Shown: piece by piece, positions 1,857 to 53,968 of the stretch
Layout: each line of letters starts with the position of its first letter
How positions within the stretch are numbered: position 1 is the stretch's first letter
Origin: Candidatus Nanoarchaeia archaeon
GTDB lineage: Archaea; Nanobdellota; Nanobdellia; Pacearchaeales; GW2011-AR1
Assembly: GCA_028718805.1 (NCBI GenBank)
Contig: JAQUKY010000001.1
Location: 16,384-80,383, forward strand
Reading direction: 5' to 3'
Length of the DNA: 64,000 nt
Made by a program: the position numbers and the translations under genes
The notes under the pieces: generated by a model
The model's database searches: none
Told to the model about the DNA's origin: nothing
The model's input: only the letters and a program-made list of their open reading frames with translations

Positions 1857-1901
1857 AAAAACTGATTAAGCAAATTTAAAAGCATTATTGTAATAGATGG
1901 A

Positions 1902-1972
1902 TGCAGTCTGCGAGGATTGCACTCGCGTCACAAGCTTGGGAAGCTCGTATTCTGCTACTAAACTAAGACTGC
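1902..1972 (-). tRNA. tRNA-Gly (anticodon CCC), 71 nt, no encoded CCA
   Basis: Reverse complement is GCAGTCTTAGTTTAGTAGCAGAATACGAGCTTCCCAAGCTTGTGACGCGAGTGCAATCCTCGCAGACTGCA. Perfect 7-bp acceptor stem (GCAGTCT/AGACTGC). 5-bp anticodon stem CGAGC/GCTTG with loop TTCCCAA. 5-bp T stem GCGAG/CTCGC. The D arm is weak and wobble-rich. This is the locally GC-richest patch. Confidence 0.78.
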
Positions 1973-2019
1973 ATGTTTTTAGTATGAGAATCAGGTTTAT
2001 TAATATTATTTTTGTTTGT

Positions 2020-2556
2020 TTATTCCAGGAACTTCCTTAATTTTTCCAAAGCTAATTTTCTCATAGAAATTTTATTTTTTTCCTCTGCTGACATTTCAGC
2101 AAAAGTTTTTTTGCTGTTTTCTGGGATAAATATTGGATCCCAGCCGAAATTTGTTTTTCCTCTTGGTTTTTTTGGCATTTTTCCTTTAAGCTGCCCGATA
2201 AAGATATGAAATTTTTTTCCATCATAAAGGCAGTAGCATGTTTTAACAGTTACTTTTCTATTTTTGTCTTGGAGAGCTTTGCATATCCCTTTGTTTCCAA
2301 GAGATCTTAGCATCCACTTAATCAGGGCTCCTGGAAAATTATTCCAGGCTTCAATATAAAATCCAGTATCTTCAACTAAAACCGTATTTTTTATAATCTG
2401 ATAGGCCTTTTTTGCTTTATGCTTAACAACTTCCTCAACTTCAAGTGCCTGGATTTCTTCCACATCTAAATTTATCCTTTCTAATTTTTTATTCAGTATA
2501 GCTTCAGCTTCTTTTACCTTATTTTCGTTTGAAGTTATAAAATATATGTTTTCCAT
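2020..2556 (-). CDS. rdgB: non-canonical purine NTP pyrophosphatase (RdgB/HAM1/ITPase family)
   Basis: MENIYFITSNENKVKEAEAIL...VLVEDTGFYIEAWNNFPGALIKW...FGWDPIFIP...TFAEMSAEEKNKISMR matches the HAM1 family pattern. Start moved to the internal ATG at 2556, because the track's longer ORF would overlap metG. Confidence 0.85.
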   Translation of the reverse strand: MENIYFITSNENKVKEAEAILNKKLERINLDVEEIQALEVEEVVKHKAKKAYQIIKNTVLVEDTGFYIEAWNNFPGALIKWMLRSLGNKGICKALQDKNRKVTVKTCYCLYDGKKFHIFIGQLKGKMPKKPRGKTNFGWDPIFIPENSKKTFAEMSAEEKNKISMRKLALEKLRKFLE

Positions 2557-2607
2557 AAGACTAGGATATAAATAAGGTTTAAATATATTCTTTCTCGTAG
2601 ATTTATT

Positions 2608-4029
2608 ATGATAAAGAAGAAATTTTATGTTACAACTGCAATAGATTATGTTAATGCAAAACCGCATTGCGGACATGCATTTGAGAAAACTTTAGCTGAT
2701 GCTATAGCAAGATGGAATAGACTTAATGGAAAAGATGTTTTTTTCTTAACTGGTGTTGATGAGAATGCACAGAAAAATGTTCAAGCTGCTGAGAAAGCAG
2801 GAATTAATGTGAAAGAGTTTGTCGATAAAAATACTGGTTTTTTCTTAGATTTATGCAAAAAATTGAATATAAGCTATGACGATTTTATTAGAACAAGTGC
2901 AAAAGATCATGCAGTTATTGTTCAAAAGATAGTTAAGAAGATAATAGAAAAAGGAGATATTTATTTAGGGAAATATGAAGGTTACTATTGCACTGGGTGT
3001 GAGGAGTATAAGACTGAAAAAGATTTAGTTGACGGAAAATGTCCTGAGCATAATAAAGAACCAGAATTCAGAAAAGAAGAGGCATATTTTTTTAAGTTAA
3101 GTAAATATCAGGATAAACTTCTTAAGATAATTCCAAAATATGTAATCCCAGAACAAAGAAAAAATGAAATAATAAAAAGGGTTGAGGAAGGATTAACTGA
3201 TCTTTGTGTTAGCAGAAGAAATGTAGAATGGGGGATTGATTTCCCAAATGATAAAAATTTTAAAATTTATGTTTGGGTTGACGCTTTGATAAATTATATT
3301 TCTGGCTTAAAAAATAAGGAAAAAAAATACTGGCCTGCTGATGTTCATGTTATTGGGAAGGGGATTAATTGGTTTCACTCAGTTATATGGCCCGCATTAT
3401 TATTATCTGCAGGTTATGAATTGCCAAAAACTCTTTTAGTTCACGGTTATTTAAATCTTGGTGGGAAAAAAATAAGCAAAAGTCTTGGGAATGTAATTGA
3501 CCCTTTAGGACTTTTAGGAAAATATGATTCAGATTCAGTAAGATACTCTTTATTGAAATGTTCTGTGTTTGAAGATTCTGATTATTCTGAAGAAATTTTA
3601 ATCAGCAGGAATAACAATGAACTGGCAAACAAATTAGGAAACTTAGTTTCAAGAGTTGAAGCATTGGCTGAGAAGTATGGAATTGAAAAAACTGAGAATA
3701 AGCTAATTTCAAAATTAAAATTAAAGGAAATTGAAAAATATGTTAATAATTATGAATTTGACAAGGCATTAAATGAGATTTTTGCCTTTATTGATGAATG
3801 CAATCTGTATGTTCAGGATAAAAAGCCCTGGGAGACTCATGATAAGAAAGTTTTGTATGAATTAGCTGATAGCATCAAGGCAACTGCAATCTTGCTTTAC
3901 CCATTTATGCCAAGCACAAGCGGGAAAATTGCAGAGCAATTTGGTTTTAAGATTGATTATAAAGAGATAAGCAAGCCTTTGAAAGTAAGTAAGATAAAGA
4001 AGGGTGAGATACTTTTTAAGAAGATGTAA
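2608..4029 (+). CDS. metG: methionyl-tRNA synthetase, core enzyme without C-terminal tRNA-binding domain
   Basis: Class I HIGH-type motif (AKPHCGHAFE), KMSKS motif (KISKSLGN) and a CxxC...CPxH zinc knuckle (CTGCEEY...KCPEH). 473 aa. Confidence 0.9.
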   Translation: MIKKKFYVTTAIDYVNAKPHCGHAFEKTLADAIARWNRLNGKDVFFLTGVDENAQKNVQAAEKAGINVKEFVDKNTGFFLDLCKKLNISYDDFIRTSAKDHAVIVQKIVKKIIEKGDIYLGKYEGYYCTGCEEYKTEKDLVDGKCPEHNKEPEFRKEEAYFFKLSKYQDKLLKIIPKYVIPEQRKNEIIKRVEEGLTDLCVSRRNVEWGIDFPNDKNFKIYVWVDALINYISGLKNKEKKYWPADVHVIGKGINWFHSVIWPALLLSAGYELPKTLLVHGYLNLGGKKISKSLGNVIDPLGLLGKYDSDSVRYSLLKCSVFEDSDYSEEILISRNNNELANKLGNLVSRVEALAEKYGIEKTENKLISKLKLKEIEKYVNNYEFDKALNEIFAFIDECNLYVQDKKPWETHDKKVLYELADSIKATAILLYPFMPSTSGKIAEQFGFKIDYKEISKPLKVSKIKKGEILFKKM

Positions 4030-4038
4030 ACCCAAACC

Positions 4039-4998
4039 TCACAAAGGCAAATAATTTAATTTGAGTAACTGGCTGTTTATGACTAATTCATATGAATCAA
4101 TTATATTCCCAAACTTTGATTTCATCTCAGACAAAAAAGAGTTCAGATCATTAATATCTGTGATTGCTACATTGATTTCATAGTCAAAAGAACCAATTTT
4201 TTTTGTAGTGTATATGACATTTTTTTTGTTTGCACACCAACAAATTAAATTATCTTCTTCCTTCAGGGTAGAATTTCTTATTTTTAACATTATGACATAA
4301 TGAAAATAGCCAATCTTGTTCATGTCAGCAATTACTCTGAATGAGCTCACTATTTTTTGTGTCAGATCTTTTACTCTGTGTTTTACCACATCTATTGTAT
4401 AACCTGTTTTTTCAGCCAGTTCTATTAAGGAGATATTTGCTTCCTGAGATAATACTCTAAGTATTTTTTTGTCTTTTTCATCAAGTTTAATTTCTTTATG
4501 ATCTTCTCCATATTTATCAAATTTAACTATTTCCTGTTTTTCTCCAAGAAGCAGTTTGTGCAGCTTAAATATTTTAGAAGAGACTACAATACTTACGAGG
4601 TAGTCATGCAAGATATCCCTGAATTTTGTTTTAACCTCACTTAAAAAAGAGTCTAATTCCCTGATGTTCTGAGATGCAATAACAAATGCATAATCAAATG
4701 AACCTTCTGTTTTAATGAAATTAATCACTTTTTTCTCACTTTTTATAAATTCAATAAACTCTTTTTCTCTTGCTGGAGTCATGGATTTCATCTTGCAATA
4801 AATCTTATGGTTCTTATAGCCAAGTTTTCCTAAGTTGACTGAGCAAATGTAATTAGTTATTATTTTTTCTTTTTCAAGTTTTTTTATCCTGTAGTCCAGC
4901 ACATTTCTTCCTATCCTGAGTTTTTTTGCCATTTTACTTAAAGGAGTCCTGCAGTTAATATCCAGTTCACACAGTATTTTTTTATCTATTAGGTCCAT
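4039..4998 (-). CDS. tandem (two-unit) Lrp/AsnC-fold protein, paralog 1
   Basis: Two AsnC-type HTH segments (LIDKKILCELDINCRTPLSKMAKKLRIGRNVLDYRIKKLEKEKII; LDEKDKKILRVLSQEANISLIELAEKTGYTIDVVKHRVKDL). Each is followed by an effector-type domain (EGSFDY.., IGSFDY..). Divergent from the 5092 operon. Confidence 0.8.
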   Translation of the reverse strand: MDLIDKKILCELDINCRTPLSKMAKKLRIGRNVLDYRIKKLEKEKIITNYICSVNLGKLGYKNHKIYCKMKSMTPAREKEFIEFIKSEKKVINFIKTEGSFDYAFVIASQNIRELDSFLSEVKTKFRDILHDYLVSIVVSSKIFKLHKLLLGEKQEIVKFDKYGEDHKEIKLDEKDKKILRVLSQEANISLIELAEKTGYTIDVVKHRVKDLTQKIVSSFRVIADMNKIGYFHYVIMLKIRNSTLKEEDNLICWCANKKNVIYTTKKIGSFDYEINVAITDINDLNSFLSEMKSKFGNIIDSYELVINSQLLKLNYLPL

Positions 4999-5091
4999 GT
5001 TATTAATAATAGGTATAAAGTATATAAATATTACCTTTTTTTAATAATTTTCTCTCACAGATTTTATATCTTATTGTATCCTGTAATTATT

Positions 5092-6264
5092 ATGGTAAGA
5101 GAAAAAAGCGCAGTTTATCCGTTATCAGCAGACCCAATACATAACGGGCACATATATACCCTAGCTGTAGCAGCAAACAGCGGCTTATTTGACAAAGTAA
5201 TTGTTGCTGTTGGAAATGACTGCAATAAAAATTATCTCTTTGACTTAGATGAAAGATTATTTTTAGCAAAAAAAGCAGTTTATTCTTCTGGATTTGAAAA
5301 AAACAAAGTAAGTGTAGAATCTTTTTATGGACTTTTAAGGAATTATGCAAGAGAGCAGGGAGCAAAATTTATAGTCAGAGGATGCAGAAACTCTAAAGAT
5401 TGGGAATATGAAAAAATATTGGGTGAATTTAATGGAGAATATGGATTACAGACTTTGATTTTTCCTGCTTCAAAAGAATTTGAGAATCTTAGTTCGACTT
5501 ATGTTAAATCCATAGCTGCGGAAGGGGGATTTGTTCATAATTTAGTTCATCCTTCAGTAAAACAAGCGCTTGAAGAAAGATTAAGAGAAGTTAGTCTAAT
5601 CGGAGTAACCGGCAATATGGGTGCTGGTAAAACTACTTTTTGTGAAAAATTAGTAGAATATTCTCAATTAAACGGAGGAAATTTGAGCCATATTGATTTT
5701 GATAAGCTAGTTCATTCATTATATTTTGGAGATTCGTCATTAAGTTATGAAGTTAGAAAGAATATAAGAGCGAGTTTTGGGGAAGATGTTTTCAATAGTT
5801 CTGGATTAGACAGAAGAAAGCTTGCTGAAATAGTTTTTGGAGATAGTGATAAGAGAGAAGAACTTTCAAGAATACTTATGGTTCCATCAATGATAAAATT
5901 TGAAGAAGAATTAAGACAAAGAAAAGGAATTGTCCTTGTTGATGCTGCATATTTTACTGAATATAACTTGCTTCCTTTGGTTAATTATAATGTAATTCTT
6001 GTGAGCTGCGATGAAAATGAAAGATTTAGGAGAGTTTTCAGAAGAGATGGAATAAATCGTGAAGAAATAGAAGCAAAAACAAAAGCTCAGCATAGTGAGG
6101 ACTTAAAAAGAAAAATAATAAGGGAAGCCCAGGATAAGTATAATCATGGTTTTTTCCATGAAATTGATTCTACAAATGGCATGAGATTAGATGAAATAAT
6201 GGAAAAAATTGAGTCTTATTTTCCTTTATTAAAATCAGGAGTCAGGGAAAATGCAATTGTCTGA
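5092..6264 (+). CDS. bifunctional phosphopantetheine adenylyltransferase (bacterial CoaD type) / dephospho-CoA kinase (CoaE type) fusion
   Basis: The N-terminal half has AVYPLSADPIHNGHIY (HxGH nucleotidyltransferase motif), FIVRGCRNSKDWEYE and SSTYVKSIAAEGG, as in bacterial CoaD. The C-terminal half has the CoaE-like P-loop IGVTGNMGAGKTT. The track start at 5074 is TTG, so I use ATG 5092 in the same frame. Confidence 0.8.
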   Translation: MVREKSAVYPLSADPIHNGHIYTLAVAANSGLFDKVIVAVGNDCNKNYLFDLDERLFLAKKAVYSSGFEKNKVSVESFYGLLRNYAREQGAKFIVRGCRNSKDWEYEKILGEFNGEYGLQTLIFPASKEFENLSSTYVKSIAAEGGFVHNLVHPSVKQALEERLREVSLIGVTGNMGAGKTTFCEKLVEYSQLNGGNLSHIDFDKLVHSLYFGDSSLSYEVRKNIRASFGEDVFNSSGLDRRKLAEIVFGDSDKREELSRILMVPSMIKFEEELRQRKGIVLVDAAYFTEYNLLPLVNYNVILVSCDENERFRRVFRRDGINREEIEAKTKAQHSEDLKRKIIREAQDKYNHGFFHEIDSTNGMRLDEIMEKIESYFPLLKSGVRENAIV

Positions 6265-6979
6265 TTTTATTTTTCGCCCACCAACTTTAAAGATGTGGAT
6301 AAAATATGGGAAGATATACGGAGAATTAGGTTCTAAATGGGCAGAGCTAATGAGAGAACTAAAAATTGATATGAGTTATGATGTTTATGGTACAAGCAAT
6401 CCCAAAGGCGAAACAGTGTTTTTAGAACTTTGCAGGAAATATTCTGAAAGTCACAGATATTATCATAATCCAAAACATCTTTTGGAATGTCTCAGAGAGT
6501 TTAATGAAGCTAGGGGTTTAGCAGAATTTCCTTTATCAGTTTCTTCAGCATTGTGGTTCCATGATGTTGTTTATGACACAAAAGCGGAAGATAATGAAGA
6601 AAAAAGTGAACAATATGCAAGGAAAAAACTTCAAGCATTAAAATTGCCTGATTCTTTTATTCAGAGAGTTGGCAATCTTGTTTTAATCACTAAACATTCT
6701 GATAAACCAAAAAACACTGATGAAAAACTTGTTTTAGATATAGATTTGTCTATCCTTGGAAAATCTGAAGAAGTTTTTAATGAATATGAAAAAAATATCA
6801 GGCAGGAGTATTCCTGGGTGGATGAAGAAGAGTTTAGAAAAGCAAGAAGCAGGATATTAGAGTCTTTTTTAAGCAGAGATTCAATATATCAAACTGATTT
6901 TTTCAGAGATAAGTATGAAGTCCAGGCAAGAAAAAATCTGGAAAGGTCTATAAACATATTAACTAATCCTGTTCCATAG
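6251..6979 (+). CDS. HD-superfamily metal-dependent phosphohydrolase (paralog of 55007-55603)
   Basis: YHNPKHLLECL ... LWFHDVVYDTKAEDNEEKSEQYARKKL ... VLDIDLSILG gives the H..H / HD / D pattern. Overlaps the CoaD-CoaE stop by 14 nt. An alternative ATG lies at 6293. Confidence 0.6.
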   Translation: MQLSDFIFRPPTLKMWIKYGKIYGELGSKWAELMRELKIDMSYDVYGTSNPKGETVFLELCRKYSESHRYYHNPKHLLECLREFNEARGLAEFPLSVSSALWFHDVVYDTKAEDNEEKSEQYARKKLQALKLPDSFIQRVGNLVLITKHSDKPKNTDEKLVLDIDLSILGKSEEVFNEYEKNIRQEYSWVDEEEFRKARSRILESFLSRDSIYQTDFFRDKYEVQARKNLERSINILTNPVP

Positions 6980-7062: not shown

Positions 7063-8562
7063 ATGGAATCTGAGAAAATGGGTTGCAATGAACTGGAAAA
7101 AATTGGTTATAATGGAATAAACCAGTCAATAGAACCTGAAGGTAACTCAAAGATTATAATTGAAAAGGATTTTGATGTTTCAAAAGTAGACTCTGCATTT
7201 AAGGATTTTTTTAAGGGAATTTCTCCTAAAGATGAGGATTCAAGATTGTTCTATTTTACAGAGCCTCATGTTGGCTCTAAGTCAAGGATGGGATTGTTTG
7301 GGGACTTTGCCCCTTCAGTTGTGTTTGCAGCTAATAGGTTTAATAAACTTCACCTTCCTGTAAGGGAAAAATATCTAAGGGAATTTGGATACGGCAAATT
7401 GTCTCATCTTTATTGTACTCTAGATAAGTCTGTAATGTTTGGTTTTCAGAATAAGTATATGGCCAGGAGCAAGATCCATAATCTTAATTCTGTTGCATCA
7501 ATTTTTCACAGACCTGGTTTGAAGATAGATGAGGAAAGACTCAAAGGCAAAGATATTTCTGATGATAAGGTTATAAAAGTATTGTTTGAAATAAAGAAAA
7601 ACGCAACTAAACTTTTTGGTGAGGTGAAATGTGAGGCTTTAGGCTATTCTACAATCAAACAATCAGAGCATAACTTCAGCTATCCTTCGCTTCTTGAAAA
7701 GATTGTTGGAGCAGATAATCTGATAAAAATCTTATTATATGGCTCAAGTGCAAAAGGACATGGGAATGACTTTGATAATCTTGGAGTTTTGCAGACAATA
7801 CCTCCTGATTTTTATGAAAAAATAAGGGGAACAAAACCTAATGAGAATGGAAAAGAAGTAGGGGTTATATTTATCCCAGAGGATATTCTTGAAAATTTTC
7901 TTTATGTAAATGTAAGCAATTCTTTACTCAGGCAAAGCAGCAAGTCTTTAAAGGGAGAGTTTGAGGTACCAATAGAATCTCCGAGATACCAGATATTCAA
8001 GGAGGCATATCACGCTGGAGTTGGCTCTGCAAAACTGCTTTCTGGGATGAATCTTGTTTATAGAAAGCCTGAATTGTTTTTTGACAAGCCAGGATTGTTT
8101 GATTATTTTATGAAACTGAACAGGTTTACACTGCAGGGGCTTTCCCAGAATGAAAAGTATGTTTCATTAAGCAAGGAAGAAACCCTGGAGAAACTTAAAA
8201 AAGGATTTGATTTTGAAATTCCAAAGTTTAAAGCAGATGTCAGCTATCTGCAGGAATGTTTTTTAAAAGCCAATAAGGCAAGCATTGAAATTGCAAGCAA
8301 ATTATATAACCCAAGACTGGCAATGGAAGGAAATGAGTTTTTAGCTGAATTGCAGCAGCAGTTTTCAAGAAAAATATTCAAGGCAGATTATCAGGGTCTT
8401 GACCTGTATGTTTTTGGCATGAGAGAGACTATGAGTTCAGGGGATATTGTTCCTGTAAGGATTCTTGATAAAAAGGAAAGAGATTATTCCTCCAAAAGAG
8501 AAGAGCTGAATTACAGGGGAATAACAAACAAAAAAAGAGTGTTAATTGGAAAAAGAGTTTAG
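7063..8562 (+). CDS. large protein with Pol-beta-type nucleotidyltransferase core
   Basis: LLYGSSAKGHGNDFDNL (G-S ... D-x-D minimal NTase signature) lies mid-protein. The flanking ~200-aa regions are unassigned. Confidence 0.5.
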   Translation: MESEKMGCNELEKIGYNGINQSIEPEGNSKIIIEKDFDVSKVDSAFKDFFKGISPKDEDSRLFYFTEPHVGSKSRMGLFGDFAPSVVFAANRFNKLHLPVREKYLREFGYGKLSHLYCTLDKSVMFGFQNKYMARSKIHNLNSVASIFHRPGLKIDEERLKGKDISDDKVIKVLFEIKKNATKLFGEVKCEALGYSTIKQSEHNFSYPSLLEKIVGADNLIKILLYGSSAKGHGNDFDNLGVLQTIPPDFYEKIRGTKPNENGKEVGVIFIPEDILENFLYVNVSNSLLRQSSKSLKGEFEVPIESPRYQIFKEAYHAGVGSAKLLSGMNLVYRKPELFFDKPGLFDYFMKLNRFTLQGLSQNEKYVSLSKEETLEKLKKGFDFEIPKFKADVSYLQECFLKANKASIEIASKLYNPRLAMEGNEFLAELQQQFSRKIFKADYQGLDLYVFGMRETMSSGDIVPVRILDKKERDYSSKREELNYRGITNKKRVLIGKRV

Positions 8563-8744
8563 GATTTTTTAAACTTATAATTGATGTCAGTAATGTGTAA
8601 GACTTTGGGATTTGCAAATGAGCAGATTAAGATTGAAATTCATAGAGTTTTTTTGTTTTAAATATTAAAGATATTATGAAAATTTTAACTAAATTTATTC
8701 TCTTATACAATAATCCTTTTAAATGATGTCTCAATTAATATCAA

Positions 8745-9818
8745 ATGGAATTTTGGCAGAGAGTTCACTGGTTTTTTACATCTAAATGCAATGAAAGATG
8801 CAAATTTTGTTTTAAACCTGATTTTGATGAGGGCTCTGCAGATAATGCAAAAACTTTAACAAATATATTAACTAAAAATGATGTTAAAGAAGTTGTTTTT
8901 ACAGGCGGGGAACCTCTTATTTCAAAAAATTTAGATAAGAGTTTAGAGATATTGCGCGATAATAATATTAATACAAGTATTCATACAAATGCAATTTTGC
9001 TGACTTCTGATAGGGTTAGAGATTTAACTTCTTTAGCAGACGAAATAGCAATACCATTAGATAGTATGAATAGAAAAACTCAGGAATATTTAAGAAATGA
9101 AGATTGCCTCAAACAAATTAAAAAAGTTTTTGGGCAATTACAAGATGCTGATGTTAGAATAGGGATACATACTGTTGCTACAGCAATAAACATGAAAGGT
9201 GTTCCTAAAATTTATGATTTTCTCTGCAAAGGAAGATTTGATTATTGGAAGATATATGAGTTTAATCCAAATTTAGTTAAGGATAGGACAAAAAGTGTAA
9301 AAAGATTTTATGAAGTAGAGAAACTTAGTGGAAGACATGCAACAGAGACTGATGGAGGGGTTAGATGTTTGTTTGCTGATTTTTTGTTAATGGAAGAACA
9401 GATGTCCAGATATAAGGACAAAAGAGTAAAATTTGTTGGTTTCAGTGATTATGACAGAGCCCCTTATTTTTTCCTGGATTCTAAAGGAAATGCTTATATG
9501 GCTACCTGGTTTTCCCAGCACAGGAAACCTATTGGAAATTTGCTGAATGAAGGATTCATAAAAGTCAGAGATAGAGCCATTAAAAAATATTCAGAAGGAC
9601 CATTATATGATGAAGATGCTTTTATTGAAACAGAACAAAGCCAGCCTCTTTGGGTCAGGGGTGCCTGGGCTGGAAATTATTTTGATGAAGAATTTGATGA
9701 TCTTGACCCAAAATACCATAATAAATTCAGGCACCTTTCAGAATTATACTTAGACAGGATAAAAAAGCAAGGAGAAGCTCCAAAAGATGCTAAACTTAAT
9801 TATACTATAATTTGTTGA
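8745..9818 (+). CDS. radical SAM enzyme, viperin-like N-terminal signature, no SPASM tail
   Basis: CNERCKFC (CxxxCxxC) and the FTGGEPLI motif. The blocks VHWFFTSKCNERCKFCF, EIAIPLDS, YWKIYEF and YFFLDSKGNAY line up by eye with viperin NYHFTRQCNYKCGFCF, ILAISCDS, RWKVFQ and SYLILDEYMRF. Confidence 0.75.
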   Translation: MEFWQRVHWFFTSKCNERCKFCFKPDFDEGSADNAKTLTNILTKNDVKEVVFTGGEPLISKNLDKSLEILRDNNINTSIHTNAILLTSDRVRDLTSLADEIAIPLDSMNRKTQEYLRNEDCLKQIKKVFGQLQDADVRIGIHTVATAINMKGVPKIYDFLCKGRFDYWKIYEFNPNLVKDRTKSVKRFYEVEKLSGRHATETDGGVRCLFADFLLMEEQMSRYKDKRVKFVGFSDYDRAPYFFLDSKGNAYMATWFSQHRKPIGNLLNEGFIKVRDRAIKKYSEGPLYDEDAFIETEQSQPLWVRGAWAGNYFDEEFDDLDPKYHNKFRHLSELYLDRIKKQGEAPKDAKLNYTIIC

Positions 9819-13749: not shown

Positions 13750-14313
13750 ATGAAAGACAAACTTAATTTAGCTTGGGTAGAAGATGCACCAAGAATTGTA
13801 GAAGAAAATAATGATTTCTTTTATCCTATAGCAAATATAGATTCATTCAAGGATAGCGAGGGATATTTAGATTTTGTAACTGCAAGAGAACATTTAATCA
13901 AAACTCACCATTATGATGGGATAATTTTAGATGATATGTTCTTAACAAACGATATTTATCCTTCAGACGGAATGGAGGCTGGGGAGCATTTGCTTTGCGA
14001 TATTCGCTCGTATGATATTAATAAAGAAACTCCGGTTATAATCTATGCTACAAGGGGTATGGAAAATCTTATTGAAAGATTTAAAGAACTTGGCGCTAAT
14101 TTTTATTTATGTAAACATTTCCAGATTCTTTCTGATGATATGAAACAAGGAGTTTATACTCTAAATCCCACAAAAAAGTCTTTAGATCTAAAAAATAAAA
14201 TTATTGCAATTCCTAAAAGTTCAGAATATGAAATTAGAGAAACAGCGATTGAACTTATGACCGCAGAGATAATGTTAGAAGGTATGAAAGCAATGCATGC
14301 TTCTTCACCTTAA
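13750..14313 (+). CDS. stand-alone receiver (CheY-like REC) domain protein with C-terminal extension
   Basis: REC landmark residues occur in order: acidic pair (WVEDAP), candidate phospho-Asp (GIILDDMF), Thr (VIIYATRG) and Lys (FYLCKH). Confidence 0.45.
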   Translation: MKDKLNLAWVEDAPRIVEENNDFFYPIANIDSFKDSEGYLDFVTAREHLIKTHHYDGIILDDMFLTNDIYPSDGMEAGEHLLCDIRSYDINKETPVIIYATRGMENLIERFKELGANFYLCKHFQILSDDMKQGVYTLNPTKKSLDLKNKIIAIPKSSEYEIRETAIELMTAEIMLEGMKAMHASSP

Positions 14314-15069
14314 TCTAAATAGTTTTGCCCAGAAACCTCTTTTAATAATTGGTTCTTTATAATCATCTCCTAAAAGTCTTTTTGAGGTTTCAATGTAATG
14401 TCTTGCTGCCTTGCTTTTTGGGTGAGTATGAACTACTGCATTTTTTAAAACCTGGGAGATTTTTACTGCTTCATCTTCTGGGATAATGCCCAGAATAGAA
14501 GTTTCTAACATATCATGTATATTTGCAATTGGCATTTCTGTCCTTACTCCCCTGTATCTTGTTATTATAACTCCTTTTACTGGTTTGTGCATTTCTTCTG
14601 CAAGCTTGATTGTCTTTAAAGCATCTGTTACAGCAGCCATTTCAGGATTAGTTACAATGATAACTTCATCACAAGCCTGCATTACAGACCTTGCTTCTTC
14701 TCCTAATCCTGCAGCAGAGTCTATTAAGACATGATTGGTTAGTTTCTTCAGTTTCCTTATTATATCTATTATTTTTCTATAGTCAACTCTTTCAGTTTCT
14801 TTTAATGATAAAGAGGCAGGGATTATTTTTGTTCCTGATTCATGCTCATAAATAGCATCTTCTAATTTTGCCTGTCCGCTTAAAACATGATTAAGAGTTA
14901 CTGGCACTATTGGAGCACCTAAGTGGATTCCTACATTAGGTGTTGTTAGATTTCCATCTATTATAATTACATCTTCTCCCAAGGAGTTTAGAGAAGTTCC
15001 TAGGTTTATTGTAGTTGTTGTTTTTCCTACTCCCCCTTTTCCAGAAATTATTGCATATACTTTTGCCAT
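14305..15069 (-). CDS. minD: MinD/ParA-family ATPase (archaeal MinD-like)
   Basis: Deviant Walker A ISGKGGVGKTTTTINLG and family-wide similarity (IIDGNLTTPNVG, VLIDSAAG). Confidence 0.85.
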   Translation of the reverse strand: MAKVYAIISGKGGVGKTTTTINLGTSLNSLGEDVIIIDGNLTTPNVGIHLGAPIVPVTLNHVLSGQAKLEDAIYEHESGTKIIPASLSLKETERVDYRKIIDIIRKLKKLTNHVLIDSAAGLGEEARSVMQACDEVIIVTNPEMAAVTDALKTIKLAEEMHKPVKGVIITRYRGVRTEMPIANIHDMLETSILGIIPEDEAVKISQVLKNAVVHTHPKSKAARHYIETSKRLLGDDYKEPIIKRGFWAKLFRLR

Positions 15070-15087
15070 TTTCCCTTAGTTTTTATT

Positions 15088-15156
15088 ATTAGTAATATAA
15101 TATAACTCATACGCTTTAGCTTCTGTTCTCATAGCGCATCAGTGTTGTTTTATTAC
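15088..15156. repeat. conserved intergenic element, family 1, copy B (19 nt upstream of the minD start)
   Basis: ATTAGTAATATAATATAACTCATACGCTTTAGCTTCTGTTCTCATAGCGCATCAGTGTTGTTTTATTAC is near-identical to copy C. Two CTCAT half-sites lie at 15106 and 15128, 22 nt apart. Confidence 0.75.
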
Positions 15157-15216
15157 TAGTAGTGTAATTTATAGATACAGTTTAATGTTTTAAAGCTTTT
15201 TCTATATATTCTTCAC

Positions 15217-15675
15217 TCAATTTTTCTCTGAAAGAAAAAGTTTGGTCTGATTTATAAATCTTTCCAGGATTTCAGAGTATTCTTTGAGTTTTTCCAAGTC
15301 TACCTTGACCTCTTGCCCCCTATACTGAATTTTTAGGCAAACCCCTTTTCTGAACTCACTTTCCTTTGTTTTTTGCAATAAATCTATTAATTTGAACATG
15401 TCATAAATGTCTATGGCTTGTATAATCTCTGGTTTTTTCTTAAATACTTCCCTCATCTCATCAATTTTTAATTTTGGTGCAGTTGGAACTTTTTTGATTA
15501 ATTTTTTCTTTTTTGCTTTGTCCAATAAACCATCTATAGAATAATCTATCATTATCTTCCATCTCTTGATAAGATTAATCATTACATCGCAGGTTTTTGT
15601 GTACTTCAGGCTTACATACAAGAGATGGTCTGCACTTATTTTTTCTTTTATAATTTTTTCTAATACTTCTGACAT
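15217..15675 (-). CDS. hypothetical helical protein (152 aa), paralog of 15900-16370
   Basis: Shares with the neighbour an N-terminal ADHLLYV / ADHMTYV block and a C-terminal V-D-x-x-K-(L/I)-K-E-Y block. Confidence 0.5.
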   Translation of the reverse strand: MSEVLEKIIKEKISADHLLYVSLKYTKTCDVMINLIKRWKIMIDYSIDGLLDKAKKKKLIKKVPTAPKLKIDEMREVFKKKPEIIQAIDIYDMFKLIDLLQKTKESEFRKGVCLKIQYRGQEVKVDLEKLKEYSEILERFINQTKLFLSEKN

Positions 15676-15792
15676 GTTTTACCTTTTTGATATTTCCCTC
15701 TATGGGAAAAAGAGCTAAAAACGGTTTAAACTAAAGGTATGACTTCTATATAAATCCTTCTTTTGAATTATGGGGGTTTTATTCTTTTTCTT

Positions 15793-15860
15793 ATTGGTAA
15801 TATAATATAACTCATGCGTTTTGGCTTCTGTCTCATAGCGTTTTAGTGCTGTTTTATTCC
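15793..15860. repeat. conserved intergenic element, family 1, copy C
   Basis: ATTGGTAATATAATATAACTCATGCGTTTTGGCTTCTGTCTCATAGCGTTTTAGTGCTGTTTTATTCC. CTCAT half-sites lie at 15811 and 15832, 21 nt apart. Confidence 0.75.
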
Positions 15861-15899
15861 TTATTTCCCTGTTTTGTTAGTGATGTTTTTAATAATTAA

Positions 15900-16370
15900 T
15901 TAAACGATTTGAGCTTTTACTTTCTCGTTAACCCGCATTAAAAGCTCTTTTGCCAGGATTAAGTATTCTTTTATTTTGCGGACATCAATAGTCTGAGTTC
16001 CTAGACTCTCTGAAAGTATTATAATCCTGTCCTTTTTGACAAATTCCATTGCACTTTGCTCATGTTTTTTATTTAGTTCCAGGATTTCCAGTATTTTCTT
16101 GACCTGTTCATGGCTTAAGTTATAACTTTTGGCACACTTTGCAAAAGTTCTCATATTTTCCCCATTATCAACATAAAGATGAACTCTTTTGTACAGATAC
16201 TCATAATTCAGTATGGCATTAACACAGTTTCTTATTGACTTATAAATCTCATCAAATATTTTTAGTAAAAGTCTTTGCTCATTGACTAAAGGGAAGGTTA
16301 CATAGGTCATGTGGTCTGCTATCTGCAGGCTTCTGATTGCTTCTTTCAGGTTTTCCTGGTATTTTTCCAT
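15900..16370 (-). CDS. hypothetical helical protein (156 aa), paralog of 15217-15675
   Basis: See 15217-15675. Long ORF with a shared motif pattern. Confidence 0.5.
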   Translation of the reverse strand: MEKYQENLKEAIRSLQIADHMTYVTFPLVNEQRLLLKIFDEIYKSIRNCVNAILNYEYLYKRVHLYVDNGENMRTFAKCAKSYNLSHEQVKKILEILELNKKHEQSAMEFVKKDRIIILSESLGTQTIDVRKIKEYLILAKELLMRVNEKVKAQIV

Positions 16371-16442
16371 GGTTTTGGATGGTATTTTCTATGGAAAAAT
16401 AAGGGAGAAATTGTTAATAAGATTATAGGTAGTAGGAAAACG

Positions 16443-16958
16443 TTAATATGCGTCAAGTAATTTTAATTGGGATTTATATACCCAAATCATAAAACATTTG
16501 TCATTTTCAAGAATTTGCGCATAATATCCTGGATATTTTTCACCCTTTTTTGTTATATCAACAGAATTTCTGTTTACCTTTGTATGATAACCCTCTTCTT
16601 TGTAGAACAACCCAATAGTTTTGGCTATATCTTTAATTGATTTTAATGAGTAATCGGGTTTATTTATTTCTATAAGCCCTGTTTCTAAATTTTCTGTTTT
16701 TAATCTGTGCTGATGAGGTTTTGTCAGGCCTAATTCAGAACAAAGAGCTTCTTCTAATCTTGGTAATATCTGGTTGGGGAAATAATGTCTTTGAACTTCT
16801 TTTAATGAAGCGAATGTTTGCGGTTTGTTATTTTCATCATTTATCCTGACTACCTTTTTTCCTTTGCATGTGTGACAGGGCTTTGTTCCTAATAATCCAA
16901 CTTGCCCTAAAGAATTATCGCCTGTTCCATTGCATGCAAGACATGTTGTTTCATACAT
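16443..16958 (-). CDS. hypothetical protein with DnaJ-type CxxCxGxG zinc-finger N-terminus
   Basis: CLACNGTG ... CHTCKGKK at the N-terminus. The rest is unassigned. Confidence 0.5.
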   Translation of the reverse strand: MYETTCLACNGTGDNSLGQVGLLGTKPCHTCKGKKVVRINDENNKPQTFASLKEVQRHYFPNQILPRLEEALCSELGLTKPHQHRLKTENLETGLIEINKPDYSLKSIKDIAKTIGLFYKEEGYHTKVNRNSVDITKKGEKYPGYYAQILENDKCFMIWVYKSQLKLLDAY

Positions 16959-17051
16959 TTTATAATAATCTAAATATTTTTATATTGTTTATAAATTTTT
17001 ATATGATTAAAGTTTAAAAAATTATGTATGTTGCTCTGAAAGATTTGGTGT

Positions 17052-17414
17052 TTATTTATCAAATCGCATTAATCTTAACATATAAGCAGGAAGGCTTTTT
17101 TCCAGAATTGGTTTTATAGATTCTTTGAAAAATTTCTCTAATTTGGGATTATTGGAGTAATCTTTACTGCTTTTCACAGAAGCAGAATGCCGGTTAATAT
17201 TACCATAATCTAAAAATTCTGCATATAATCCAAGACGTCCATCAAAGTCAGGAATCTCTATTTTCAATCTTTTTCCAGAACCCCTTTGTGTATTTTTATT
17301 TAATTCATAGGTACCATAGGCAGTTAAAATTCCATTCTCAAGATTAAGGGGAATTTCAAACCTTTGGGTCAATTCAGTTTCTAGTTCAAGTTTTTCTTTA
17401 GTTTCGGTTATCAT
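17052..17414 (-). CDS. hypothetical protein (120 aa)
   Basis: ORF only. Confidence 0.45.
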   Translation of the reverse strand: MITETKEKLELETELTQRFEIPLNLENGILTAYGTYELNKNTQRGSGKRLKIEIPDFDGRLGLYAEFLDYGNINRHSASVKSSKDYSNNPKLEKFFKESIKPILEKSLPAYMLRLMRFDK

Positions 17415-17485
17415 TTCGAATCATAAATAGTGACAGTAGTTCTTTTTAAGATATTATATGTTCTAAAAGCTATTTTAAATCATAA

Positions 17486-17818
17486 CTAACTTAAACTCAA
17501 AATAGCTTCTGCTAAATCCCCATCAGCATCTTCTAAAGCTTTTTTTGCTTTAGGTTCTGAACAGCCTGTTTTTTCTATTATTGTTTTAATGTCTTCTTCA
17601 CTGTTATCTTCTTCTGTTGCTTCTTCCTCAGAAATATCCCCAGAAATCTGAAAACTGTCCTGCCCCTGCATATTAATTTTAACTACAGAAGGATTGTTTA
17701 TTATTATGTTTTTTTCAGGTGTTTCAATTATAACTCTTGTTGCATCAATTTCATTTTGGGATATTCCCATCTGCTTCATCATAGCCTGCATTTTTTTAGG
17801 GTCTAATTTTGGGAACAT
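17486..17818 (-). CDS. nac: nascent polypeptide-associated complex protein (archaeal NAC, NAC + UBA domains)
   Basis: MQAMMKQMGI...VIIETPEKNIIINNPSVVKINMQGQDSFQISG is the NAC beta-barrel. The C-terminal EPKAKKALEDADGDLAEAILSL is UBA-like. Confidence 0.8.
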   Translation of the reverse strand: MFPKLDPKKMQAMMKQMGISQNEIDATRVIIETPEKNIIINNPSVVKINMQGQDSFQISGDISEEEATEEDNSEEDIKTIIEKTGCSEPKAKKALEDADGDLAEAILSLS

Positions 17819-50709: not shown

Positions 50710-51330
50710 TTAAATCTCAATTATCTTTCCTTTCTTGCCAACAGAAATTACTCTTGTTTTCCCTATTTTTTCGTTTAATCCCTCTGCTTCATGAATATGG
50801 CCTGAAATAAACAAATCGGGCTGAAATTTTTCAATTGCTTTTCTTATGGCCTTGCTTCCTGGAAATCCTGAAAATTCTGCTTTTGTTCTTGCAGCATGCA
50901 TATGGCTGACCATTATCTTCTTTTCCAAATCCTTGATTTTTTCAAAGTCTTTTTCCAGTTTTTTAAATGCATTACCCTCGTTTAATTTCAGCTGCCAGTC
51001 TTCATTGCCCACCCCAAAAATTCCAACATTGTCATACTTGACATAGTGTTTTCCAATATTTTTTATGCCATATAACCTTGAGATAGTTTCTGTGGCTTCT
51101 GTTGTATCCCAGTTTCCAGGAACAAAAACAACCCTCTTGTTTTTCTGGAGAAACGGCTTTATTAAATTTTCAGTTTCAATCAATCCCGTTATATCTCCTG
51201 TCAGGACAACCAGATCAACATTTTCTTTTTCAGCTTTTTCAGCTAATCTTTTTGATGCAGACGAATCTCCATGAAAATCCCCTGCTGCGAGAATCTTGAA
51301 TTTCTTTTGTTTGTTTATCTGGTTTTTCAT
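50710..51330 (-). CDS. calcineurin-like metallophosphoesterase (YfcE/MJ0936-like)
   Basis: ILAAGDFHGD, VVLTGDITG, VPGNWD and SGHIHE motifs in canonical order. Confidence 0.75.
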   Translation of the reverse strand: MKNQINKQKKFKILAAGDFHGDSSASKRLAEKAEKENVDLVVLTGDITGLIETENLIKPFLQKNKRVVFVPGNWDTTEATETISRLYGIKNIGKHYVKYDNVGIFGVGNEDWQLKLNEGNAFKKLEKDFEKIKDLEKKIMVSHMHAARTKAEFSGFPGSKAIRKAIEKFQPDLFISGHIHEAEGLNEKIGKTRVISVGKKGKIIEI

Positions 51331-51412
51331 GATTTTCTTAAGATAGTTATATTTTTAAACCCTATTTTATTCTATTTTTGACCATAGGGGAAGAGAGTTC
51401 TGATAATTTGAA

Positions 51413-51880
51413 ATGGCAGAAGATAAATTAAGTATGATACTCGGGTTAGAACTCTCTTCTAAGGCCCTGGAACATTATTTTTCTCTTAAAAAGAGAGGTA
51501 TTAGCAGTATTGATGTAGCTAAAGAGTTTGTAATCGAACTTGATAAAAAATCTATTGATTTAAAGCAGATGATTGAAGATTTTACTTATGCGTTCTTAGG
51601 GGATAAAGATGCTCAAAAATGGTCTCAAAAAAAACCTGTTTTGGGAAAAATGCAGGATGATAGAAAATATGCTTTAAGACTAATAGGACAGCATGTTAAA
51701 AATGACGGAAAGACTTCAGAAGAGGAGAGGGGTTTTGACTATATTATCAGTCATTTAAGATATCTGAATAAAACTAAAGATAAGGACCAAAAAATAAAAA
51801 GTGATGCTTATGCAAGATTACATGGGTTTTTTGACTACATTGCCCAAGAAGCTGAGAAGGAAGTTAGCAAACTCTTCTAA
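51413..51880 (+). CDS. hypothetical protein (155 aa)
   Basis: ORF only. Its leader (GGGGAAGAGAGTTCTGATAATTTGAAATG) resembles the leader of the 25996 gene (GGGAAAAAGAGTTCTGATATGAAAAATG). Confidence 0.45.
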   Translation: MAEDKLSMILGLELSSKALEHYFSLKKRGISSIDVAKEFVIELDKKSIDLKQMIEDFTYAFLGDKDAQKWSQKKPVLGKMQDDRKYALRLIGQHVKNDGKTSEEERGFDYIISHLRYLNKTKDKDQKIKSDAYARLHGFFDYIAQEAEKEVSKLF

Positions 51881-51913
51881 ATTTTTTGCAACTATTTTAT
51901 ACCTAAAAGAGGT

Positions 51914-52366
51914 TTATCCTGCGAGGATTTTAACAGCAGCACATATTTTTTCTTTATCAGACATGTTGTACTTATATTCATACACCTCTTTAAGAATTTC
52001 TTTGGATTCTTCTGGTTTTATGCCGTGTGTTGCTGATTCAAATCGTTTTTTTAGCTGTTCTACTTCCAAACCATGAAAAAGATAAGAAGTTTTCTCTTCA
52101 CCTTCTTTTAATAAATCTTCAATATCATTTCCAAGAGGCCTAATATATGCATAAACTTTTTTTGAATCAGTAAAAGGCAAGGATTTTTTTTGAGAATCTC
52201 TTTTTACACTTAAATCTATAACTGAGCAGTCTTCTATATCCAAAGCAATTACTTCTAAGTTCCCTATTCCATCTAATTCTGGCTCTGTTTTTAAAATTGG
52301 TGTCTCTTGTTTATCTTCTGTTTTAGCATATTTTTGTTCTATCATCTTTAAAATTTTACATATCAA
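51914..52366 (-). CDS. hypothetical protein (150 aa), last gene of the HD / radical SAM / kinase operon
   Basis: Overlaps the kinase gene by 11 nt. No motif recognised. Confidence 0.5.
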   Translation of the reverse strand: MICKILKMIEQKYAKTEDKQETPILKTEPELDGIGNLEVIALDIEDCSVIDLSVKRDSQKKSLPFTDSKKVYAYIRPLGNDIEDLLKEGEEKTSYLFHGLEVEQLKKRFESATHGIKPEESKEILKEVYEYKYNMSDKEKICAAVKILAG

Positions 52367-52952
52367 GAGTTTTTAAGTTTTTATAGACAAAAATTTCTAG
52401 CGCTTTAGATGATTGTTCTGCTGTTTTATTTGTAGTATCTATCTTTGTTTTATAGCCATTGAATTTTGTGTATAAATCTAAATATTTATTTTCTCTTGAA
52501 ATTATCAGATGAGGATTTTTTGAGAGGATTTTGTGATATTTATTATCTGAACTTTTACTAAGTCTTTTGATTATTTCTTCTAAAGATGCATGAAAGTATA
52601 CCAGTGCATCTGGTTTGATTATAAATGGTTTGAAAATTTTTGCTATTAATTTATTATACTCTCTTTCTGCAGTCGGGTAGGATAAAATGGAAAGGTCATA
52701 TCTGTCCTGCAATATTATCTTATTTTGCTTTAAATTTGGTTTTATTATCCTGTATTGAATATACATCAACTCCAGCAAAAATAACAAAGTTGATGGAAAT
52801 TTTCTTGCTAATTTGCCTATAAAAGTATCTGAACCAATTCCTTTGCTGTATATATAGTCATTATTCTCTTTGTTATTGCTTAATAGCTGTTTAATTGTTG
52901 TTGTTTTACCTGTTCCATCTAATCCTTCGCATATAATTAAAAGTCCTTTCAT
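52356..52952 (-). CDS. thymidylate kinase-family P-loop protein
   Basis: LIICEGLDGTGKTTT (the EG-DG-GK-T motif of dTMP kinases) and QDRYDLSILSY (DRY..S..Y). Its ATG overlaps the upstream TGA (ATGA). Confidence 0.65.
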   Translation of the reverse strand: MKGLLIICEGLDGTGKTTTIKQLLSNNKENNDYIYSKGIGSDTFIGKLARKFPSTLLFLLELMYIQYRIIKPNLKQNKIILQDRYDLSILSYPTAEREYNKLIAKIFKPFIIKPDALVYFHASLEEIIKRLSKSSDNKYHKILSKNPHLIISRENKYLDLYTKFNGYKTKIDTTNKTAEQSSKALEIFVYKNLKTLDM

Positions 52953-53968
52953 TTTACATCCCCTAATTCAAATTTTCTTAGAGGGCATACAAAACCATAT
53001 TTTTTACAATCATAATTTTTTATATCAAATGCATTTTTAAAATTAACACAGTATCCTCCAAATCCTTTAAATAGTTGAGATAAATCTTTCCAGTATTTGT
53101 TCCATAATTCTGTATTATTCCAAATATCTTTGACAGAGCATTTGTGCAGGTTTGCAAGAGGTTTGTTATAAGAAGCTAAGATTGCGCATGGATATACATT
53201 TCCATCAGGCAAAATCTGAAGGTGACTTTTTTCTTTATTTGCAATGCATCCTAAATTAGGATTCCATTTTTCTTTTTCTATTAAAGGGAATTCAATAGAG
53301 ATTCTCATTCCTTTATTCTGATATTTTTTTAATTTTTCTCTGATAAATTTTAGCCATTTTAGTGGTTCAACAGCTAATTCTTTGCTTTTGTTACCTCTTC
53401 CTATTGGAGTAAAGTAATAGATTCCTTGTTCATCTGCTTTTAAATTCAAGGCTAACTCAGTTATGTTTGAAATATCTTCTAAATTACAAGAAAAAACAGT
53501 AGTGTTTATTTTAGTATAAAATCCTGTTTTTTTTGATTCTTTTATATTTTCTATTACTCTTTCAAAAGTTTCTTTATCTTTTCTTCTTATTTTATTATAA
53601 ATTTCTGCATTTGACCCATCTAAGCTAATTGCTATTGCATCTAAACCCAGCTCTTTAAATTTTCTTAATTTTTCTTTTGTAAGCAGTGAGCCATTGGTGA
53701 CCAGTTCAATCTTGTAATCTAATCTTTTCCCTAATTTGATGATTTCTTCAACATCATCTCTTACTAATGGTTCGCCGCCGGTTATATCAAATCTTTTTCC
53801 TCCAAGTTCTTTTGTGTCTGTTAAAATTTTTTCTAATTCCTTTAGATTAAGTTCTGGCATTTTTGTTATCCCAGAATCAAAAGCGCAATGAGTGCACCTA
53901 AAATTACATCTGTTAGTTATGTTTAAGTCTAGTTTTGGTAGTGTTCTATTTTCCATTTTTTTCTCCAT
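52949..53968 (-). CDS. radical SAM enzyme (second of a pair), C-terminal Cys-containing auxiliary region
   Basis: LNITNRCNFRCTHC (CxxxCxxC), ITGGEPLV and C-terminal cysteines (LGCIANKE, VYPCAIL, GGYCVNF, YDCKKYGFVCP). Start set at the internal ATG 53968; the track ORF extends to 54010. Confidence 0.7.
   Translation of the reverse strand: MEKKMENRTLPKLDLNITNRCNFRCTHCAFDSGITKMPELNLKELEKILTDTKELGGKRFDITGGEPLVRDDVEEIIKLGKRLDYKIELVTNGSLLTKEKLRKFKELGLDAIAISLDGSNAEIYNKIRRKDKETFERVIENIKESKKTGFYTKINTTVFSCNLEDISNITELALNLKADEQGIYYFTPIGRGNKSKELAVEPLKWLKFIREKLKKYQNKGMRISIEFPLIEKEKWNPNLGCIANKEKSHLQILPDGNVYPCAILASYNKPLANLHKCSVKDIWNNTELWNKYWKDLSQLFKGFGGYCVNFKNAFDIKNYDCKKYGFVCPLRKFELGDVK

Follow-up and report, generated by a model that had tools for sequence, protein, structure and literature searches.

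The window analyzed here is a 64,000-nucleotide stretch of DNA from a Candidatus Nanoarchaeia archaeon (assembly GCA_028718805.1, contig JAQUKY010000001.1, positions 16,384 to 80,383 of the forward strand). At 8745–9818 on its plus strand lies a gene for a radical S-adenosylmethionine (SAM) protein, which a preliminary description had likened to viperin on the basis of short matching blocks of sequence. Viperins, which make natural antiviral analogues of nucleotides, are among the few immune enzymes common to bacteria through humans. The open reading frame (ORF) proposed there is confirmed by the ORF list and its translation: it begins with ATG, encodes 357 amino acids, and ends with a stop codon at 9816–9818. 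Its product is a genuine radical SAM protein. In Pfam, it matches PF04055 with 69.9 bits (gathering score, 29.5) over residues 11–159, and the translation contains CNERCKFC (8787–8810, plus strand), a CxxxCxxC motif for the radical SAM [4Fe-4S] cluster whose cysteines C15, C19, and C22 are kept in 75, 77, and 77 of 77 family members, respectively. (Residue counts here and below are taken from alignment columns over these 77 sequences, and viperin residues follow the mouse numbering.) No further cysteine is conserved among these members; thus, the protein would have no auxiliary cluster, and the absence of a SPASM cysteine cluster, as claimed previously, is borne out.

The other elements of the radical SAM core are as follows. 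The β1 strand, V7–K14 (VHWFFTSK; 8763–8786, plus strand), was located by phmmer and hhalign alignments, and at the position of the viperin N-x-H motif on this strand the protein has H8-W9-F10. The SAM-binding “GGE” motif after β2 is present as GGEP (G54–P57; 8904–8915, plus strand), which is kept in at least 95% of the 77 sequences and aligns with G125-G126-E127 of viperin. A β6 motif, FDYWKIYEFN (residues 165–174; 9237–9266, plus strand), is aligned by hhalign such that W168 matches viperin W246 and K169 matches K247, with Y167 in place of viperin R245. Three histidines, H8, H80, and H142, are near-invariant and family-specific; they stand at or just past the C-terminal ends of β1, β3, and β5, and we infer that they line the pocket.

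The C-terminal half of the protein contains two elements that are kept across the family and are lacking in viperins and in viperin-like relatives of ∼260–300 amino acids. One is a family-specific insert of 32 amino acids (residues 177–208; 9273–9368, plus strand), seen as a gap in the hhalign comparison and in a mixed MAFFT alignment and modeled with predicted local distance difference test (pLDDT) values of 88–93. The other is the C-terminal tail (residues 278–357, 80 amino acids; 9576–9815, plus strand), which is acidic and aromatic, as had been noticed previously: it has an isoelectric point (pI) of 4.9, 12 Phe, Trp, or Tyr residues, and a kept motif, PLW.R..W.GNY..EE. The tail is helical in the AlphaFold2 (AF2) model, with pLDDT mostly 74–94, and has no match to any viperin, pVip, or intermediate profile. 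Between insert and tail lies a hairpin of the cysteine-less twitch or viperin type, PYFFLDSKGNAYMATWFSQHRKPIGNLL (residues 240–267; 9462–9545, plus strand), placed by transitive profile alignment and by MAFFT. It includes Y241, which is invariant (77 of 77) and is equated with viperin Y302 via intermediate sequences, and strands at residues 241–244, 249–253, and 261–265 are seen in the AF2 model. The segment PYFFLD..G......IGN is a cysteine-less form of the hairpin found in the SPASM genes of the window (for example, LQILPDGNVYPC...LANL).

The protein belongs to an uncharacterized family that is restricted to DPANN archaea. In a database of 5.8 billion proteins, an identical protein (P0001, 100%) was found together with ∼38 full-length relatives (35–72% identity), and beyond these close relatives the E-values leap from 1.6e-55 to 3.2e-7. 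When 1.84 billion cluster representatives were searched with the family profile, the result was ∼65 clusters (at 50% identity, fragments included) that match nearly the whole profile, with E-values up to 2e-46; the long multi-domain matches of this search were set aside as generic proteins with multiple radical SAM or SPASM domains, not related architectures. By source names and GTDB species representatives, the hosts are metagenome-assembled genomes of Nanoarchaeota, Pacearchaeota, Woesearchaeota, and Aenigmatarchaeota, plus a single “Euryarchaeota SM23-78” bin and a single “Saccharibacteria” bin. A pattern-based scan, which gives a lower bound, found the family in at least 13 GTDB species representatives, and with only this number the family must be considered rare and patchy. 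Its median pI is 6.15. No relative was found in a scan of IMG/VR viral contigs, and a literature search returned no paper linking viperin with DPANN archaea.

At the level of sequence, the resemblance to viperin goes beyond chance, yet is shallow. Viperin is the best named family, and to this extent the proposed link to viperin is supported: the top NCBIfam match is NF038283 (viperin) with 75.8 bits, followed by NirJ2 (62.2), a tungsten-cofactor maturase (59.1), and MoaA (57.9); the PADLOC pVip hidden Markov models (HMMs) give 90.6 and 85.7 bits over positions ∼2–185; viperins (entries 9dfn, 6b4c, and 7n7i) lead a phmmer search of the PDB, those of Trichoderma, Nematostella, and mouse coming first, with 36 bits and E-values of 3–5e-8; and in a BLASTP comparison with a human-type viperin, 22% of 157 aligned amino acids, all in the core, are identical (E 1e-7). 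But the NF038283 score is only 40% of the curated cutoff of 180 bits, and the match covers profile positions 4–190 of 281 (residues 7–175), which correspond to the N-terminal half of the protein. The second viperin profile, TIGR04278, is absent from the best 25 of the 79 NCBIfam families matched. Calibration of the pVip HMMs, which are prokaryotic, points the same way: the eukaryotic viperins of mouse and Trichoderma virens still reach 212–230 bits and four viperin-like relatives 130–178 bits, in each case over the full length, versus 72–100 bits for three members of the family, which match some two-thirds of the profile. Moreover, two unrelated SPASM radical SAM genes of the window (52949–54010 and 53946–55013, minus strand), taken as controls, score 99.4 and 69.6 bits on NF038283, and the SPASM protein at 52949–54010 matches the same PDB viperins with 36–37 bits. 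Given the cutoff, the coverage, and the controls with real viperins and in-window genes, the absolute similarity is therefore generic to this radical SAM clade, and the protein is distinctive only in that all non-viperin families score still lower.

A similar picture emerges from the five viperin-like blocks (residues 7–23, 50–59, 100–112, 166–173, and 240–252) that were originally picked out by eye, all of which are present. For the comparisons with viperin, the human sequence was verified against the PDB (631 bits to mouse viperin), and the sequences from mouse, Nematostella, and T. virens were taken from the PDB output, with residue numbering checked; a search with human viperin gave vertebrate orthologues only among the 120 matches listed and so added no pVip diversity. 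Block 1 stands above the controls, with 9 of 17 identities to human viperin versus 5 of 17 in the SPASM genes. Block 2 (5 of 10 versus 4–7 of 10) and block 3 (4 of 13 versus 4–5 of 13) do not; both are motifs of the radical SAM core in general. A direct comparison with viperin fails to reveal block 5, which emerges only through intermediate sequences.

When the 77 family sequences are compared with viperins profile to profile, the alignment is significant only for residues 5–172 (E 1.7e-17). Against 39 unannotated proteins of ∼255–320 amino acids, taken from the profile search, hhalign gives a probability of 100% and an E-value of 1e-58 over residues 1–277, and those 39 proteins in turn align profile to profile with viperin as far as and including the SYLILD strand (E 3e-32); the register of these profile alignments recurs in a joint MAFFT alignment. 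A direct alignment of the C-terminal profiles of the family and of viperin, which fell in another register, was not significant (E 0.085) and was discarded, and because of this a by-eye equation of “FDEEAF” with viperin “FDEKMF” was dropped as well. The best profile-profile match of the family is to viperin-like proteins of ∼260–300 amino acids from bacteria and archaea (for example, P0114, P0124, and P0161), which share with it [C/H]-W on β1, WK[IV][FY][QE]F on β6, and a hairpin of the form Y-x-x-[IL]-x-x-x-G ... [IV]GN. These relatives differ from the family in retaining K120 and K220, in having neither insert nor tail, and in their gene contexts. Ten of them score 81–166 bits on NF038283. 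They are themselves uncharacterized and form a heterogeneous set.

One of these relatives, P0124 (∼271 amino acids), scores 178 bits on a pVip HMM and is widespread, occurring in 119 blocks of the collection. In locus L026 (3–2375), it is found in the order NUDIX, radical SAM, methyltransferase, nitroreductase; locus L028 (1–2283) has the same order, although there the contig end truncates the first gene, for which Pfam gives no call. These two loci suggest another uncharacterized nucleotide-related system.

Structural prediction extends the likeness beyond the N-terminal core. The AF2 model, built from a 28-sequence family alignment, has a mean pLDDT of 90.0 and a predicted TM-score (pTM) of 0.88 and consists of six β/α units followed by four more strands and several helices. 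The protein is thus confidently predicted to fold as a partial triosephosphate isomerase (TIM) barrel with a C-terminal extension closing it, the arrangement seen in viperin. All Foldseek matches in the PDB are radical SAM enzymes, with a mixed group at the top: SuiB (E 5e-13), viperins (2e-12 to 4e-11), SkfB (1e-11), DesII (1e-10), BlsE (7e-10), and MoaA (9e-9). For the viperins, the TM-score normalized to viperin is 0.67–0.77, with 281–328 aligned columns for chains of 253–294 residues, from which it follows that nearly the whole viperin fold, C-terminal extension included, has a counterpart in the model; the query-normalized TM-score is ∼0.6 because the query is larger. The structural similarity to viperin is not exclusive, as SuiB and SkfB match the same closed-barrel fold equally well.

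These structural relatives differ in what they share with the protein. Viperin and pVip (RSAD2; NF038283, TIGR04278) have, like it, a single-cluster radical SAM core without auxiliary-cluster cysteines. The SPASM/twitch maturases SuiB (5V1T), SkfB (6EFN), CteB (5WHY), and anSME (4K36), which match with Foldseek E-values of 5e-13 to 1e-8, have the same succession of core, C-terminal β-hairpin, and helices; unlike them, however, the protein has no auxiliary cysteines, no match to PF13186, and no peptide-recognition domain, and its scores on their HMMs are lower. MoaA, BlsE, and DesII belong to the same clade and share the fold, but on the MoaA profile (TIGR02666) the protein reaches 57.9 bits against a cutoff of 284, it does not have the cysteines of the GTP-binding C-terminal cluster of MoaA, and no sugar-nucleotide or molybdenum cofactor genes are conserved near it.

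In the substrate pocket, the family appears to depart from viperin. Several features are retained. Viperin N158, D182-S183, N229, and the GGE motif, which are part of the SAM-binding core, are conserved; W246 on β6 is Trp in all 77 members, with Arg or Lys (72 of 77) at the adjoining K247, Y302 on β7 is Tyr in all of them, and R194 is probably kept as R117. Of these, the β6 Lys and the β7 Tyr are pocket residues characteristic of viperin-type enzymes. In viperin, S124, K220, N222, and K247 line the pocket, Lys319 and Cys314 of the β8 loop (with Asn or Arg variants) contact and select the nucleobase, and the C-terminal P-loop binds the γ-phosphate. The N-x-H motif of β1 is not kept, N77 being replaced by His (68 of 77) and H79 by Phe or Tyr (71 of 77). 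Likewise, K220 is replaced by Gly (62 of 77), N222 by His (76 of 77), R245 by Tyr (57 of 77), and N122 by Ile, Thr, or Val, and K120 is variable (Lys in 27, Glu in 20, Arg in 8, Gln in 7). Toward the C terminus, where the MAFFT alignment is unreliable, K319 may correspond to R260 (Arg in 66 of 77) and C314 to Ala, Tyr, or Cys; the KRGGK tail that forms the viperin P-loop has no credible counterpart, with Trp, Glu, and Tyr in the columns aligned, again unreliably, to it. The basic and polar site that holds triphosphate and ribose in viperin is thus mostly replaced, with K247 and probably R194 kept. A check of the viperin substrate residues, which the preliminary description had proposed, consequently speaks against the viperin assignment.

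These observations bear on annotation. A PADLOC pVip HMM matches the protein with an E-value of 3e-26, and pipelines that consider only E-values could label the family as viperin; the calibration and the residue comparison make such a call unsafe.

The genomic surroundings of the gene offer little guidance. A 182-bp AT-rich spacer precedes it, with a run of seven T residues (8648–8654) downstream of the previous gene and a possible archaeal TATA box, TTTTAAA (8717–8723, plus strand), 28 nucleotides upstream of the ATG; these may hint at an independent, near-leaderless transcript, although the evidence is weak because such strings are common at 32% GC. The GC content is ∼32% through the whole window, with no anomaly at this gene, and a convergent gene for a P-type ATPase lies 11 bp downstream. 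The preliminary description had named a neighboring nucleotidyltransferase (NTase), HD hydrolase, and kinase domain, which would fit nucleotide chemistry; the genes in question lie upstream. The supposed kinase (5074–6264) is a CoaD-CoaE fusion of coenzyme A biosynthesis, with scores above the NCBIfam cutoffs (TIGR01510, 114.6 versus 103.3; TIGR00152, 72 versus 65.55). The supposed HD hydrolase (242 amino acids; 6251–6979, plus strand) and NTase (499 amino acids; 7063–8562, plus strand) have no sequence match in Pfam, NCBIfam, PADLOC, or the PDB. By eye, the former contains an HD-like string, YHNPKH...WFHDVVYD, and the latter an NTase-like string, YGSSAKGHGNDFDNL (GS...DxD).

Nor are these neighbors conserved. 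Homologue look-ups and scans of GTDB and JGI yielded 34 non-redundant loci, whose radical SAM proteins are no more than 90% identical to one another, and none of the CoaD-CoaE, 242-amino acid, and 499-amino acid genes stands next to any homologue. Clustering of all neighbors found no family in more than 4 of the 34 loci, and none of these is a kinase; with nothing common to more than 4 loci, an assignment through guilt by association was rejected. The sole recurrent set, in 4 loci, comprises NAC, two ∼150-amino acid helical proteins that look paralogous and have no Pfam family, and a MinD/ParA-like ATPase (window, 14305–17818, minus strand; L010, 503–2698; L015, 157–3521; L024, 4168–7517). In L015 and L024, the radical SAM gene is inserted within this cluster, with the helical proteins to one side and NAC to the other, and the cluster is 4.5–8 kb away from it in the window and L010, where a methionyl-tRNA synthetase (MetRS) gene is also near in both. 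This recurrence is chromosomal synteny, not a functional module. In the absence of a conserved neighbor, the enzyme appears to work alone.

In the locus of one distant homologue (L005, 4800–9978), the radical SAM gene is flanked by genes for deoxyhypusine synthase and aRF1 and, at its other end, by the aIF5A gene. The archaeal hypusine pathway has gaps; still, this placement, seen in one non-redundant locus, is probably coincidence.

How, then, might the protein function? It is probably not a classical viperin. The family is best read as a distant offshoot of the viperin-like branch within the MoaA/twitch/SPASM/viperin group, and we lean toward the view that the protein works by itself, as an enzyme built on a viperin-like scaffold, and that its substrate is something other than a nucleoside triphosphate (NTP). 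Its single [4Fe-4S] cluster would cleave SAM to give a 5′-deoxyadenosyl radical, which would abstract a hydrogen from a small substrate inside the barrel, with Lys/Arg169 on β6 and Tyr241 on β7 playing the catalytic-pocket roles of viperin K247 and Y302. An NTP is an unlikely substrate because four to five of the triphosphate-binding residues are replaced and because the C terminus is an acidic tail, not a basic P-loop. The substrate would thus be less phosphorylated or uncharged, possibly still containing a ribose or nucleoside, and the enzyme would act without a dedicated partner gene. Relatives in this clade that lack an auxiliary cluster (viperin, BlsE, and DesII), and also MoaA, act on nucleoside-bearing molecules, which provides a prior only.

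Several points weigh against this non-NTP scaffold enzyme. No datum obtained here points to any particular substrate. Phosphates could still be bound by R117, K/R169, and R260, all of which are conserved. The picture of the pocket comes from alignments, and the substrate roles of the viperin residues are presumably those of the mouse viperin–CTP structure (PDB 6Q2P). Past residue ∼175, the alignment rests on intermediates and is not significant directly, so the equations of Y241 with Y302 and of R260 with K319 are themselves inferences. Finally, the patchy distribution is equally compatible with a role in defense.

This last point is one of several that would fit a divergent true viperin, or pVip, which would convert an NTP to its 3′-deoxy-3′,4′-didehydro form (ddhNTP), a chain terminator, and thereby protect the DPANN cell from viruses. 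Viperin and pVip are the top matches in NCBIfam, PADLOC, and the PDB; the fold covers almost the whole viperin chain; K247, Y302, D182/S183, probably R194, and possibly K319 (as R260) are kept; viperins, too, are patchily distributed; and a few loci have toxin-antitoxin-like or CARF/Csm6-like genes nearby. We nevertheless consider this identity quite unlikely. A score of 75.8 bits falls far below 180 with the C-terminal third of the profile unmatched, animal and fungal viperins score more than twice as high as the family on the pVip HMMs, and a SPASM protein of the window itself reaches 99 bits. N77, H79, K220, N222, and R245 have given way to other residues, K120 varies among members, and the P-loop has no credible counterpart, with H-W-F standing for N-x-H and with an insert and tail that viperins do not have. 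No kinase or defense gene is linked to the family across the 34 loci, and synteny with housekeeping genes (MetRS, NAC, and MinD) speaks for a stable chromosomal gene. The production of ddhNTPs, which the preliminary description had envisaged, is therefore unsupported by the sub-threshold score, the replaced substrate residues, and the unconserved neighbors. The regional synteny between the window and L010 could be taken to indicate a housekeeping enzyme of RNA modification or cofactor synthesis that replaces a canonical one absent from these reduced genomes, as could the unremarkable GC content and the translation and replication genes among which the family is found at many loci (RNA polymerase subunit N with L21e; aRF1, aIF5A, and deoxyhypusine synthase; NAC and MinD). 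But almost any gene in a small DPANN genome stands beside housekeeping genes, a core function would call for a wider distribution than 13 species representatives (a lower bound), the median pI of 6.15 and the acidic tail are unlike RNA-binding enzymes, and no known RNA-modifying radical SAM family is resembled above the generic level; a housekeeping role thus seems rather unlikely.

The structural matches raise a different prospect, that of a twitch/SPASM-type maturase that modifies a peptide or protein encoded elsewhere in the genome, for instance by cross-linking, epimerization, or a change to a side chain. SuiB (E 5e-13), SkfB, and CteB are among the best Foldseek matches, the C-terminal “G..(x)n..GN” hairpin is generic to twitch and SPASM proteins and occurs in both SPASM genes of the window, and the acidic tail could dock a basic protein. 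We judge such an activity unlikely: auxiliary-cluster cysteines and a PF13186 match are lacking, the protein begins at β1 with no N-terminal peptide-recognition domain, the neighborhoods show no conserved transporter or small ORF for a precursor, and every maturase family scores below viperin in NCBIfam. A bolder variant of the non-NTP scaffold enzyme would make the family a DPANN-specific descendant of the viperin scaffold in which the triphosphate clamp has disappeared from the pocket and an acidic-aromatic lid has been added; it would make a new modified nucleoside or low-phosphate nucleotide, or act on a cationic metabolite. This idea is doubtful as it stands, but if true it would imply a new class of small-molecule product, possibly for virus defense or for the symbiont–host interaction of these ultra-small archaea. 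More generally, a rewired pocket on a viperin scaffold could reveal new radical chemistry or a bioactive nucleoside. At present, the proteins add one more to the uncharacterized radical SAM families, and their gene contexts give no hint of function.

Elsewhere in the window, ∼43 kb from the gene discussed here, there is a locus that does combine radical SAM, HD, and nucleotide kinase genes. It consists of overlapping genes at 50710–55603 (minus strand), a probable operon. The two SPASM radical SAM genes at 52949–54010 and 53946–55013 (minus strand) both match PF13186; the latter overlaps a gene for an HD-domain protein (55007–55603, minus strand), and beside the former lies a gene for a thymidylate-kinase-like protein (52356–52952, minus strand). 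A 150-amino acid protein with no family match (51914–52366, minus strand) and, near the operon, a metallophosphoesterase (50710–51330, minus strand) are encoded further along. Together, this gene set suggests a nucleotide-modifying pathway. Near each of the two radical SAM loci also lies one gene for a protein of ∼320–330 amino acids with two AsnC-type helix-turn-helix domains (tandem Lrp/AsnC), at 4039–4998 (minus strand) and 55696–56694 (plus strand). At the start of the window, a tRNA-Gly(CCC) gene (1898–1973, minus strand) is found near a Ham1/ITPase ORF (2020–2676, minus strand) that overlaps the MetRS gene (2608–4029, plus strand) by 69 nucleotides; because the Ham1 domain begins at residue 44, the true start of this ORF is probably an internal Met near residue 41.

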